From: an uncultured Opitutales bacterium
Lineage (GTDB): Bacteria > Verrucomicrobiota > Verrucomicrobiia > Opitutales > UBA2995
Direction of reading: 5' to 3'
Length of the DNA: 37,789 nt
Assembly: GCA_937920335.1 (NCBI GenBank)
Contig: CALGUT010000457.1
Location: forward strand, 1-37,789
Below the pieces are notes generated by a model that saw nothing but the letters and a program-made list of their open reading frames with translations, ran no database searches and was not told the DNA's origin. This document shows, piece after piece, positions 58-23,310 of the stretch. The first letter of the stretch is position 1; each line of letters begins with the position of its first letter. A program made the position numbers and the translations under genes.

Positions 58-88
58 GAGTCCAGGAAAATTGTACAAAAATAGATGA

Positions 89-119
89 TTACCGCTTATA
101 CTCGCTAATGTGAGCTTAT
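89..119 (+). repeat. Left inverted end of GxxExxY cassette (three CGCTTAT-like units)
   Basis: TTACCGCTTATACTCGCTAATGTGAGCTTAT. ACCGCTTATA (91-100) is the exact reverse complement of TATAAGCGGT (768-777). Confidence 0.75.
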
Positions 120-174
120 CATCGAGAAGACGGGATGAATTTTTTTAAGATAAAACGCCGCCATTCCACCAGTG

Positions 175-222
175 TTCCGGTCTGCTGAGCATCCGGTCTT
201 GTCGCCACTTCGTGTCTCGGAA
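175..222. mobile_element. 48-nt palindromic mini-insertion, copy A (in-frame)
   Basis: TTCCG...CGGAA termini. 40/48 identical to 578-625. Removal converts NFGPNVPRHEVATRPDAQQTGTLVEW to NFGPNALVEW. Confidence 0.8.
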
Positions 223-330
223 CATTCGGACCGAAATTGATAAGATAGCCTACTGCCTTCTTTGTTATGTGCATATAGTTCATAATTTGTTGTTCGTGGC
301 TCGAGTCCAAAATTTTAACCGCCTTTAGCG

Positions 331-463
331 GTCCGATATCTCCCCAAGATGAAAAGTGTCGCTACGCTCGATTCGGTCATGTCGTCGGTCCCCTCCTCGG
401 AAAAGTGACAATTGAGAATATAATATCTAAAAACACAATGTTATGATGTCGCTACACTCGGAA
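331..463. mobile_element. 133-135-nt composite insertion with related termini
   Basis: GTCCG (331-335) ... CTCGGAA (457-463) termini. Internal near-duplicate TGTCGCTAC(G/A)CTCG at 357-370 and 447-460. It separates PDLLV from LKAVK and carries an in-frame stop. Confidence 0.7.
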
Positions 464-577
464 CTCTACACACTAACAGGTCAGGTATATATTTCTTTCT
501 CAGGCATTGCCCTTTATAATATACCTCAAGCTCGTTCTTCGAAGAAAATGGTATTCCTCTCAAACCTAACTCAATTG

Positions 578-625
578 TTCCGGCCTGCAATGCACCCGGT
601 CTTGTCGGCACTGCGTTTCTCGGAA
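578..625. mobile_element. 48-nt palindromic mini-insertion, copy B (in-frame)
   Basis: TTCCG...CGGAA termini. Removal converts YQESLVPRNAVPTRPGALQAGTIELG to YQESLAIELG. Confidence 0.8.
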
Positions 626-748
626 CCAAGCTCTCCTGATACAGTTCCTCGCTCAATCCACCTCCAAGCTCTTTGTGTACCTCAAACGCCGCCCCCATCA
701 AGGAATACCCCTCAGATCCAAGAAACTCTTTGTTCTCTAACATGATTT

Positions 749-780
749 TAAGCGTAAGTTCAGCGGCTATAAGCGGTTAA
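749..780 (-). repeat. Right inverted end of GxxExxY cassette, overlapping the lutB stop codon
   Basis: Minus strand reads TTAACCGCTTATAGCCGCTGAACTTACGCTTA, three CGCT units. Its TAA is the lutB stop (777-779). Confidence 0.75.
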
Positions 781-2189
781 ACCTCCGATCGGTCAGCTTT
801 CTTTCTTTGTTTAAGCCATTTGCGGAATTGGCCGCCTTGCCAGGCAGGCAGGGTGCGGTCCTTGAGCCAGGTTTGCATGGAGGGAACGGGAACCATCGAC
901 TTGGGAAATACATTCATGAGGTGTCCGCCTTTGAGTGCCAAACTCCACGCAGTGGGACTACTCGCCATGGTGGACCAGGCGCCCATGGGTGGGGCGGAGA
1001 TCTTGGACATGGGTGCATTCGCTTCTTTCCCACGGTAGCGCAGTTTAAGTAACAGGTCTGGAATCGGGATATTGACAGGGCAGACTTCGTTGCAAGCACC
1101 ACATAAACTGGAAGCTTTGGGTAAGTCAGCCAACTCTGGGAATCCTTCTTTGCCCACAAGATTGGGAGCCAAAACCGCACCGATCGGCCCCGGATAGGTA
1201 TGACGGTAGGCATGCCCGGAAGCTTGGCGAAAGACGGGGCACACATTCAAACAGGCTCCGCATCGAATACAGTGCAGTGCTTCCCGGCAATCGGATGCCA
1301 GGGTTTCCGTGCGGCCATTATCCACGAATACCACGTGCATCTGCTCAGGGCCTTCCGGCTGATTTTCCGAACGAGGACCGCTCATAAACTCGGTATACAC
1401 CGACCAATGTTGAGCCGTTGATGAGCGGGCCAGCAGATTCAAGTAAAGTGTCAGATCCTCATCGGTCGGGATGATCTTCTCAATTCCCACCACGGCGATG
1501 TAGACTTTGGCGCCAGCCAAACCAAAACGACAATTCCCTTCGTTGGTGACCACGACTACGCGTCCTGATTCGGCCGAAACAAAATTTCCCCCGGACATGG
1601 TGCCGGTGGATGAGAGGTATTTTTCGCGAAGAAATTTCCGGGCCTGCCGTGTTAAGGTTTGTGGATCTTCGGTATACTCCCCTAGCCCATGCTGTTTAAA
1701 GGTCTCGGCGACCTGTCGCTTGTTTTTGTGAATGATGGGTGTCACAATATGACTGGGGTGATCGTTATCGAGCTGCACGACAAACTCCCCGAGGTCACTC
1801 TCCCACACTTCGATATCATTCTCCTCCATGAGCCCGCGCATATCAAGCTCTTCCGTGACCATGCTCTTGGATTTACAAAAACGGGTAACCCCATTCTTTT
1901 TATAAATATCCACGATCTGGGTACGGGCTGACTCCACCGTACTGGCGAAGTGCACCTGCACCCCATTGGATTCCATTTTCGTAACCGTCTGCTCCAAATA
2001 CTCATCAAGATGACTGATGGTATGGCGCTTAAGCTCCCCGGCCCACTCGCGCAGCTTATTCGCCTCCGGGAAATCCCCAAACAATACGTTCTTCCGGCCT
2101 TCGATACGACCCTTGGTCGCTTTATGAATAGCCGCGTTAACTTCAGGATTCAGTTCCTTGGCAAATTGATCTATAGGTTGAAGAGGCAT
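777..2189 (-). CDS. lutB: LutB/LldF iron-sulfur L-lactate utilization protein
   Basis: 470 aa. KSKSMVTEE, ESDLGEF..QL...PSHIVTP, CIRCGACLNVCP and SLCGACNEVCPVNI ferredoxin-type motifs. Confidence 0.93.
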   Translation of the reverse strand: MPLQPIDQFAKELNPEVNAAIHKATKGRIEGRKNVLFGDFPEANKLREWAGELKRHTISHLDEYLEQTVTKMESNGVQVHFASTVESARTQIVDIYKKNGVTRFCKSKSMVTEELDMRGLMEENDIEVWESDLGEFVVQLDNDHPSHIVTPIIHKNKRQVAETFKQHGLGEYTEDPQTLTRQARKFLREKYLSSTGTMSGGNFVSAESGRVVVVTNEGNCRFGLAGAKVYIAVVGIEKIIPTDEDLTLYLNLLARSSTAQHWSVYTEFMSGPRSENQPEGPEQMHVVFVDNGRTETLASDCREALHCIRCGACLNVCPVFRQASGHAYRHTYPGPIGAVLAPNLVGKEGFPELADLPKASSLCGACNEVCPVNIPIPDLLLKLRYRGKEANAPMSKISAPPMGAWSTMASSPTAWSLALKGGHLMNVFPKSMVPVPSMQTWLKDRTLPAWQGGQFRKWLKQRKKADRSEV

Positions 2190-2194
2190 TTTTT

Positions 2195-2693
2195 TTAGAA
2201 GTGAGAAGCGAGGAGATAGTAGTTAGAAACCATAAGTGAAAAGGCACTGATCACAAGTGGTTAGTGATGAAGGATAGGGTTATCGCGCAAAGACGCAGAG
2301 GCGCAACGGAGGGAGAAAAGGTTAAGAGGTAGGGCAATTGCGTCCCCACAATGCCGGTTGGAGCCAGAAAGAATTTCAATCTTGTTCGTGATCATGGTCG
2401 TAATCGTTGTCGATGGTAGGCGTAAGTAGATAAAATTACTTAAAGTATGGGTTATCGCGCAAAGACGCAGAGGCGCAAAGGTTAATCAGTAGGGCGAAAA
2501 ATGACTTAGGATCGGTTGGCTTAACCACGAAGGACACGGAGAAACACGAAGCTTTAGATTAATGGGTAGGGCAATTGCGTCCCCGCAATGCCGGGTTATA
2601 GTGCGGCTCCGCCGCGGTTAAAATCGTTATCCTGATCATGGTCGTAATCGTAATCGATAGTAAACATTTCGGTGGTGAATGGTAAACAAGAAG
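2195..2693 (+). repeat. Mosaic intergenic array of several short repeat families
   Basis: A (30 nt, identical) 2277-2306 and 2449-2478. B (30 nt, 1 mismatch) 2328-2357 and 2565-2594. C (19-nt identical core) 2389-2407 and 2633-2651. Single periodic units at 2195-2229, 2521-2551 and 2673-2693. Hairpins at 2245-2266 and 2603-2615. Confidence 0.9.
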
Positions 2694-2732
2694 GCGTTAA
2701 TAACTAAATAGATGGGATCAATAAGCTACTCA

Positions 2733-3515
2733 CTACTGGCTACTCGATTCTGACTTCTGATCGGGTTCTCCGATCAATGCATCTCTCAGAACCTGAGCAA
2801 TGTGCGTAACCGGATAAGGCAGTCCCTCTTTTTCGGCGAGTCCCTTTTGGTGCATGAGACAACTCATGTCTGCCGATACAATAAGGTCTGGTTTATTGGC
2901 GGTGAGGTTGCCGATCTTAAGGTCGCCCATCGTCTTGGAAATATGCGGAAAGGTCACCGAGAAGGTTCCTCCAAAGCCGCAACACTGTTCAGGCTCGGAT
3001 ACCGCAATCAGTTCAACACCTGCGATCGATGACAGAAGCTGTTCCATCGCCGCTCCCGTTTGGGTGCCACGCGTATGACAGGAATGGTGCACAGCGATTT
3101 TGGCATCGAGCCGTCCCGGCCACGTTGCGATCCCCAAGCCATTTACGAGAAAATCAACCAGTTCCCAGGTCCGGTCGCCCAGCGCTTTTATCTCACCCAA
3201 ATCTGACTCTTTCTCAAACTCGAGAGGCGCTCCATGAAACATCATAGCCGCACAAGAACCGGACGGGACGATGACCGGTTTCTCACCGGCAAACACCGAC
3301 ACGGTATGCCGAACGACTTTCCGCGAGGCAATCCAGTCGCCACCGTTAAAAGCCGGTTGACCACAGCAGGTTTGGCCCTCCGGAAATTCAATGTCGCAGC
3401 CGACGTGGTCAAGTACTTCAACGGTCGCTTGAGCCACATCGGCGTAAAAGGCATCACACAAACAGGTGGCCATTAACTGGACCGACTTAGAAGAGGTTCG
3501 AGATTCGGATATCAT
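2733..3515 (-). CDS. lutA: LutA/YkgE (Fe-S)-binding lactate utilization protein
   Basis: Two CCG domains (QTCCGQPAFNGG, EQCCGFGGTFSV) plus SGSC and HHSCH. ATG at 3515 preferred over TTG at 3521. Confidence 0.92.
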   Translation of the reverse strand: MISESRTSSKSVQLMATCLCDAFYADVAQATVEVLDHVGCDIEFPEGQTCCGQPAFNGGDWIASRKVVRHTVSVFAGEKPVIVPSGSCAAMMFHGAPLEFEKESDLGEIKALGDRTWELVDFLVNGLGIATWPGRLDAKIAVHHSCHTRGTQTGAAMEQLLSSIAGVELIAVSEPEQCCGFGGTFSVTFPHISKTMGDLKIGNLTANKPDLIVSADMSCLMHQKGLAEKEGLPYPVTHIAQVLRDALIGEPDQKSESSSQ

Positions 3516-3634
3516 GAGCAAGAGATAGCATTAACCGCTTAGGACGCGACGGGCGCAAACACCCAATTAAACATAGGATTCCAAAAATCTCTGCCATGCA
3601 TCGTCAGCAAGCGAGGCATTTTTTCATCCATGGA

Positions 3635-23038: not shown

Positions 23039-23058
23039 GAGCTAGACACAACAGTTTC

Positions 23059-23125
23059 CAAATCGGCAGCCAACTGCCTTCCTGCACTATTAAATAAAGG
23101 AGGTGGCTGGCTGCCGATTTGTTTT
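23059..23125 (+). terminator. Stem-loop / probable intrinsic terminator
   Basis: Perfect 14-bp stem CAAATCGGCAGCCA / TGGCTGCCGATTTG followed by TTTT, 20 nt after the stop. Confidence 0.7.
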
Positions 23126-23310
23126 CAGGAGCGGTGACGGATAAAAATCAACGGCATCGTCTCTGACAATTGACTTTCAAGTTCTGCAATCACTGAATGG
23201 GATTCTATCGAGGAAGGCCTCTGTTATTTTCCGAATCGCAGGTCGACTTCATCAAAAGAACACTAACACGCATTCAGCAATACTGACAGAAGAGATCTAT
23301 GTACAAAGTC

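Follow-up and report, generated by a model that had tools for sequence, protein, structure and literature searches.

Gene Content and Layout of the lutA-lutB Gap

The window, i.e., the whole 37,789-nt stretch of DNA analysed here from an uncultured Opitutales bacterium (genome G000), carries a rhamnose/lactate-use operon in which lutA and lutB, both on the minus strand, are separated by a gap of 543 nt (2190-2732), in agreement with the initial annotation of the locus. We found no gene inside this gap: the longest stop-free frame in 2151-2780 spans 74 codons, PF05635 has zero matches on the contig, and Rfam has zero matches across 2100-2850. The gap is filled by short repeat units of several families (Table 1). 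The heptads, the hairpin, and the units A, B, C, E, and GNA were all located where the initial annotation had placed them, and the detected family units are indeed co-oriented (7/7 in the same direction). Other parts of that description need modification. The spacers are not all unique, since the junction from the B tail to A and ~10 nt following A are each present twice. An opposite end, reported as missing together with any gene, does exist in the form of the heptad arm at 2724-2760, although no gene accompanies it. Lastly, the resemblance of A and E to the 'left end' of a cassette holds in window coordinates only; in the sense of transcription they are downstream arms.

Table 1. Host genes, neighboring cassette, and repeat units at the lutA-lutB gap (window coordinates).
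Feature	Positions	Strand	Description
lutB-lutC GxxExxY cassette	87..780	-	both arms present; gene broken by small inserts
lutB	777..2189	-	downstream host gene; LUD/LutB_C match; TIGR00273 just under cut-off
Outermost downstream heptad arm	2195..2229	-	four-helix-bundle cassette type; also in G002; matches the upstream arms of four-helix genes L063 (26/35) and L071 (27/35)
Weak hairpin	2245..2266	.	locus-specific, common to G002 only
A1	2277..2306	-	orphan downstream arm of a GxxExxY cassette
B1	2328..2357	-	single GTAG-type REP arm, with CTAC last in operon sense; missing from G002 allele
C1	2378..2418	-	6-nt-period arm, downstream form; arm type flanks one four-helix subfamily
A2	2449..2478	-	same sequence as the arm downstream of the intact GxxExxY gene of G002
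Truncated B head	2480..2496	-	mark of a duplicated B-A block
E	2521..2551	-	downstream arm of another GxxExxY lineage; matches arms of L060 and L056
B2	2565..2594	-	GTAG-type REP, single arm
GNA hairpin module	2595..2620 (hairpin 2601-2617)	-	relatives in mixed arrays on G000 C85 and G002 C90 and C143
C2	2622..2662	-	6-nt-period arm, downstream form
Innermost short heptad arm	2671..2693 (heptads 2671-2686)	-	downstream form, read by eye
Upstream heptad arm	2724..2760	-	only upstream arm of the array; overlaps last codons and stop of lutA
lutA	2733..3521	-	upstream host gene; CCG domain match

The array is laid out as one upstream arm, a short spacer, and then a stack of downstream arms. Unit A recurs as an exact repeat of 30 nt, longer than any repeat in 300 shuffles (maximum 13). 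The B units fold at -11 to -12.9 kcal/mol, and B has 41 copies in the genome compared to 0 in the reversed genome. Read in operon sense, 576 nt contain the word TAAC 10 times, mostly at unit edges, compared to a rate of 4 per kb. A CRISPR-like array, with one repeat and regular unique spacers, was ruled out by the several repeat families and their irregular spacing (172, 237, 244). The weak hairpin is present in 2 of 15 genomes, i.e., in G000 and in the orthologous gap of G002, and it is possibly a heptad remnant. No partner gene was found for the GNA module, and its sole match outside arrays falls in a coding region.

As the sequence comes from a metagenome bin of 900 contigs, misassembly of the repeats was considered, a concern also raised by the initial annotation. 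The assembly is fragmented, and positions 2390-2479 lie outside the independent contigs of the lut locus. Contigs from three other sequencing runs are identical to the window over 2168-2318, 2480-2634, and 2490-2740, with zero differences, and the junction from A2 through its spacer to C1, which lies within 2390-2479, is 88% identical in G002. The array has no match in the contigs of runs X3, X8, and X11, in which the organism has small shares. We regard an assembly artifact as scarcely credible.

Elsewhere in the window, a gene for a VapB antitoxin (PF09957; 10494-10694) follows rhaA, with no partner toxin ORF called beside it. An inverted repeat pair at 23039-23130 resembles, by eye, the REP doublet of the RAYT on contig C447.

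The Units are Arms of Small Gene Cassettes

GxxExxY (PF13366), four-helix-bundle (PF05635), and Y1 transposase genes were taken from five genomes of the genus, and their flanks were read. Every family is bracketed by inverted arms. The GxxExxY arms consist of three 8-10-nt units, the four-helix arms are heptad runs or, in one subfamily, 6-nt ATC/GAT runs, and the RAYT arms are GTAG REPs; the Y1_Tnp gene (RAYT) on contig C779 sits between B doublets. Target-site duplications, a hallmark of MITEs and of IS elements with terminal inverted repeats and a cognate transposase, were not seen by eye in the cassette flanks that were read. The genome-wide search proposed by the initial annotation thus led from the units to named gene families: A and E to GxxExxY, the heptads and C to four-helix genes, and B to RAYT. 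These units thus also occur outside this locus; their absence elsewhere would, according to the initial annotation, have spoken against its reading.

Unit E scores 32.7 bits on an arm matrix trained on 28 arms from other genomes. Unit A reaches just 11.5-13.6 bits on the same matrix, which is within noise, and its assignment to GxxExxY comes from the G002 allele (see below) and from a survey of 80 relatives of the G002 GxxExxY gene in many phyla, the query locus included. Arms sharing at least 20 of 29 letters with A stand upstream of the gene in 36/80 and downstream in 31/80 of these loci; wrong-way arms numbered 10 and 16, respectively, since the arms often form doublets. Own arms were also counted in 117 further cassettes from the family and the order. 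Beside GxxExxY genes, the upstream side holds 39 arms of upstream form vs. 7, and the downstream side 31 of downstream form vs. 14; beside four-helix genes, the corresponding counts are 33 vs. 1 and 34 vs. 2, and shuffles gave values near 0. The regular expressions used for the orientation, neighbor, and foreign-arm counts were written after the units of the window had been seen, so that only the arm matrix and the heptad detector are independent of the window.

Armed cassettes were also observed in other settings. One four-helix subfamily of the sister genus (L350-L357, L361, L368, and L375) has 8-nt arms that have expanded, on the upstream side, to over 25 copies in tandem. GxxExxY cassettes occur on viral contigs at 10 loci (among L488, L489, L491, L495, L496, and L498-L503), of which 5 were inspected and all were armed, and exact A cores were found on viral contigs at 6 loci with 2 distinct sequences. 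Viral contigs are a possible vehicle for armed GxxExxY cassettes.

A Pair of Heptad Arms Encloses the Array

The upstream heptad arm (2724-2760) and the outermost downstream one (2195-2229) are identical at 26 of 35 positions in register; they are complementary and enclose the array. Their duplex is predicted at -27.9 kcal/mol vs. a shuffle mean of -12.0, with 0 of 200 shuffles as good, and among the eleven units 2724-2760 pairs with 2195-2229 alone. The pair closes the array in both the MFE and the centroid predicted structures, with ~21 expected pairs. By sequence, the two arms belong to the same arm subfamily but need not be one original pair, since the arms of other four-helix genes also match 2195-2229 (26-27/35). 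The upstream form of the innermost heptad word (2671-2693) sits to the left of the cassette in the congener G004.

Occupied, Replaced, and Empty Alleles in Relatives

Three alleles of the gap were available within the genus (G000, G002, and G004). In G002, with LutA 92% identical, an intact GxxExxY gene (TIGR04256) directly follows the lutA stop, and its downstream arm is A2. The two alleles have in common the spacer after A2, part of C1, A1, the hairpin, and the outermost downstream heptads; they differ in the stretch from C1 to A1 and in everything on the lutA side of A2. The G002 allele has neither an outer upstream heptad arm nor any B. The gap of G004 holds a different GxxExxY cassette, which is interrupted and has stacked arms to either side. 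The tail of LutA after ...DAL is different in each of the three genomes.

Beyond the genus, the aligned ends of lutA and lutB are only 3-25 nt apart in seven sister-genus genomes. We also surveyed 80 metagenome loci (best LutA match 71%), 11 of which were dropped as lutB could not be located. In the remaining 69, the gap measures 1-247 nt; by eye, empty arm pairs of GxxExxY, heptad, or REP type are present in 15 and a lone downstream heptad arm in 3. The occupied alleles together with the empty arm pairs in relatives indicate that the gap is a recurrent landing site. They bear out the proposal of the initial annotation that stacked orphan half-ends mark a cassette hotspot, with the intact gene and A arm in G002, the cassette in G004, and the empty pairs in distant relatives as its occupied and empty states.

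The same comparison bears on two other explanations. According to the first, the gap is an RNA element in which the outer heptads loop out the spacer for RNase III or tune lutB-lutC relative to lutA, with the inner units as stability or binding sites. The predicted outer stem fits this explanation, as do the contigs from an RNA library that span 2490-2963, although that library may include DNA. A precedent is the S23p intervening sequence, which is cut out by RNase III at its terminal stem (PMC4990558). In addition, the array parts in common with G002 are 88% identical, the second highest value among 29 syntenic gaps. This identity, however, is as high in the spacers as in the arms, the upstream heptad arm needed for the stem is absent in G002, and the seven sister-genus genomes have a gap of only 3-25 nt. 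The fold of the whole gap has a z of only -1.84, with 5 of 100 shuffles as good, and neither an Rfam match nor an excess of terminators or promoters was detected. On these structure predictions and comparisons, an RNA element seems decidedly unlikely, and the functional array of processing sites that the initial annotation had offered as its second option found no support.

According to the second, a single degenerate tandem duplication of an A-B-C block would account for the region, with no cassette history at all. There are indeed two copies each of A, B, and C in one and the same order, the two blocks can be aligned, and a truncated B head next to A2 marks a B-A block that was duplicated within the gap. 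Against duplication as the whole explanation, E, the GNA module, and three heptad arms lie outside the duplicated block, the units are arms of named gene families elsewhere, and A2 remains the closing arm of an intact gene in G002. We therefore consider it highly improbable as the sole origin, and the occupied alleles largely refute this reading, which the initial annotation had listed against its own.

A Possible Conversion Signature Between Two Species

Fourfold-site identity between G000 and G002 is 48% in lutB and 43% in lutA. The array parts common to both genomes, in contrast, are 88% identical, in spacers as much as in arms. The GxxExxY cassette in the lutB-lutC gap, its small inserts aside, is 92-100% identical to the intact copy in G002, vs. 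72-88% in lutB, and the high identity continues over ~100 nt of lutB and 17 nt of lutC. The last 31 codons or so of lutB are unusually similar between the two genomes, with 26 of 31 third positions identical, a level matched by 3 of 130 ordinary genes. This pattern suggests that the 3' end of lutB may have been co-converted along with the next cassette. A four-helix cassette on contig C476 is 88-98% identical, and this peak takes in ~110 nt from the gene that follows. The G000 copies at these two clear peaks are both broken genes, so that slow evolution of the proteins does not account for the peaks. The RAYT site on C447 shows a weak peak only, and that on C779 lies within a broad tract of 90% identity. 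The signal of possible flank co-conversion is clear at two sites, weak at one, and part of a broad tract at one.

These peaks have to be read against background gene flow. Among 178 orthologues, 23 have a fourfold identity above 0.8 compared to a median of 0.40 (loci L464-L483 and L280 among them), pointing to recent gene flow between the G000 and G002 species. Such flow is common, which counts against the conversion peaks as special evidence. As judged by sequence identity, cassettes and their short flanks are far more alike between the species than neutral sites are, a homing-like conversion signature.

The GxxExxY gene of the lutB-lutC cassette is interrupted at three places, and two of the inserts are ~50 nt long with short inverted ends. 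The same insert family was also found on contigs C167, C270, C283, C504, and C806, adjoining B, and it resembles a mobile element of very small size.

Stacking Order and Copying of Blocks

Foreign arms beside the intact cassettes among the 117 were of upstream form on the upstream side at 20 loci, of downstream form on the downstream side at 14, and wrong-way at 7; by eye, 8 and 3 of the first two counts are 8-mer arms of the cassettes themselves that were misread, so that ~12 and ~11 remain, and related loci are not independent. The arms are nested, with upstream arms piling up to the left and downstream arms to the right of cassettes. One-way polarity, in which downstream arms alone accumulate, was rejected as a general rule by the foreign arms on both sides. 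On the question of polarised gain or loss raised by the initial annotation, the order around the 117 cassettes is nested and not one-way. There is no downstream bias of orphan arms genome-wide for B (13:13) or C (14:13), and the GxxExxY-type orphan arms stand at 7:3. Foreign arms were at shuffle level beside 61 distant GxxExxY loci with both neighbors called. Stacks are infrequent: none was found in 21 syntenic comparisons obtained from 39 loci tried, and of these comparisons 11 had a short arm-free gap in G000 and 9 a cassette of the same family. Moreover, 19 of 22 co-oriented cross-family neighbors in G000 come almost wholly from the lutA-lutB gap and from contig C85.

Block copying has contributed alongside arrivals. 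On contig C85, the layout relative to the plus-strand gene is the same as in the lutA-lutB array. Blocks of ~125 nt including spacers are common to C85 and the unlinked G002 arrays C143 and C90. The orthologous gaps of G002 and G003 lack the C85 array and measure ~100 nt, arm-free. An RRTTA-3-nt prefix precedes 5 of 5 B copies in the mixed arrays of G000 and 1 of 36 elsewhere. Owing to block duplication and copying between loci, arrivals must have been fewer than units. To read the successive insertions of the initial annotation as one unit per insertion is an overstatement. Nor is the unit order a clean time record, since the outer upstream heptad arm is missing in G002 and the two genomes also differ between A2 and A1.

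The B units suggest a further alternative, a BIME-like mosaic in which a RAYT acting on REP B captured and amplified neighboring blocks, so that most units are passengers and only one or two cassettes were ever resident. B is a GTAG REP that flanks the RAYT on C779, B is found in each of the mixed arrays C85, C90, and C143, which have blocks in common, and the A-B-C order occurs twice. Run X1 contributes a single contig (depth 2.9) in which 2251-2355 is repeated, which may be an assembly effect. E. coli TnpA-REP cuts at a distance and joins REP and linker sites in vitro (PMC3333891). Weighing against this alternative, the G002 allele stacks arms without any B, the B copies are co-oriented rather than alternating, three different cassettes or empty pairs occupy the gap in relatives, and the identity peak over non-RAYT cassettes is left unexplained. 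A mosaic of this kind is unlikely as the main origin of the array.

Several other arrays were noted. A second co-oriented mixed array of 690 nt, drawn from the same unit library, lies on G000 C85 (3075-3764; L273). On G000 C229 (4119-4258; L274), an upstream heptad arm and an E-type downstream arm form a gene-less mismatched pair, and G002 has a different GxxExxY-type downstream arm at this site. The orthologues of arrays C405 and C229 in G002 include no occupied allele. Another array type, in which tandem blocks combine A-type arm doublets with 6-nt arms, occurs on G000 C405 and C330 and at L342, L343, and L344; the gene bracketed by it at L342 is also the one at L344 and encodes ~290 aa. A single site (G000 C804, L066, and L075) carries in three species three four-helix cassettes with different arms, with no stack left.

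The GxxExxY Protein

The model of the G002-type GxxExxY protein has a pLDDT of 94.6, its structural neighbors of the PD-(D/E)XK fold score at Z 5-8.1, and residues D67, E77, and K79 are conserved. Foldseek gave no match at E<=0.001, the best Z was 8.1, and Holliday-junction resolvases were tied with many others, so that no nearest family or subfamily stands out; no sequence relative has a solved structure. Family matches are to PF13366 (PDDEXK_3) and, for the G002 gene, to TIGR04256, and not to GIY-YIG or HNH. The predicted nuclease gene is intergenic in the G002 allele and in the lutB-lutC gap, and it is absent from the lutA-lutB gap of the window.

Discussion

In an integron cassette array or CALIN, each cassette is followed by one attC hairpin, and an integron integrase is involved. 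In Nostoc, small dispersed repeats of 20-30 nt reportedly lie in heptamer tracts; the likeness consists of 20-30-nt families beside heptad tracts, but the words described here are tied to gene cassettes.

Closer parallels exist in REP/BIME and REPIN arrays with RAYT (TnpA-REP) (PMC3333891; PMC3733652; PMC2817692). The parallels include an intergenic mosaic, a GTAG REP with a RAYT in the genome, and copy-number change at the locus, as well as TIRYTs, inverted-repeat-flanked small genes whose repeats form dispersed families. In BIMEs, REPs alternate in orientation and are joined by linkers, whereas B1 and B2 are single and co-oriented. Moreover, most modules here are arms of non-transposase genes (GxxExxY and four-helix), and several families nest in one gap.

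The S23p ORF of 23S rRNA intervening sequences also belongs to PF05635 and lies within a terminal inverted repeat able to form an RNA stem; these sequences are sporadic and horizontally acquired, and their ORF is decaying (PMC4990558). The terminal inverted repeats at 2724-2760 and 2195-2229 are comparable, with a stem that is predicted. The differences are that the lutA-lutB array lies in an mRNA operon rather than a 23S rRNA helix, that its loop holds arms of other families and no S23p ORF, and that its arms are built of heptad or 6-nt words in tandem.

The free-standing homing endonucleases of T-even phages (intronless homing; PMC2988022) likewise are promoterless intergenic nuclease genes, with replacement at one gap and with co-conversion of flanks, to which the identity peaks found here may correspond. 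Here, by contrast, the setting is a bacterial chromosome, the nuclease is predicted and of PD-(D/E)XK rather than GIY-YIG/HNH fold, inverted arms are present, and non-nuclease cassettes carry the same signature. The array is partly like BIME/REPIN, the S23p intervening sequence, and the free-standing homing endonucleases, and it misses a defining feature of each. A search of titles and abstract beginnings in the open-access literature returned no paper on these arms.

About ten leftover downstream arms of GxxExxY, four-helix, and RAYT cassettes lie in the gap inside one heptad pair. We consider it probable that this stack was built up as cassette alleles were repeatedly swapped by gene conversion, as genes and inner upstream arms were lost, and as blocks of arms were copied. 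The array is real, and we read it as the likely scar of such swaps, for the most part non-functional, and not as a working array of RNA sites. In the proposed sequence of events, an incoming allele would recombine in the end of lutA and in an arm common with the resident allele. Everything between the crossovers would be replaced and the outer downstream arms left behind, and genes and inner upstream arms would be deleted later. The arms may also serve as short homology pads for in-place duplication and for copying between loci. As for the putative trigger, our best guess is that the GxxExxY nuclease or a trans-acting RAYT would cut in the arms or close to them, followed by host recombination repair. 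No swap intermediate was seen among the alleles.

A broader reading, which we put forward tentatively and hold to be rather doubtful, is that the GxxExxY, four-helix, and RAYT mini-cassettes all belong to a single homing-like mobility system not described so far. In this system, a trans-acting nuclease would cut at the arms or close by, and host repair would copy the cassette with ~20-100 nt of flank across species. Arrivals would nest inside older pairs, making the gap a nested record with the innermost elements the newest.

GxxExxY and four-helix genes are frequent hypothetical genes in operons of many phyla. At the lutA-lutB locus, their arms, the mosaics of orphan repeats, and the conversion signature between species come together with alleles that are occupied, replaced, or empty. 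It supplies a concrete substrate and a protein for the question of homing, and it suggests a rule for annotation, namely that such mosaics be read as cassette scars and not as regulatory RNA.
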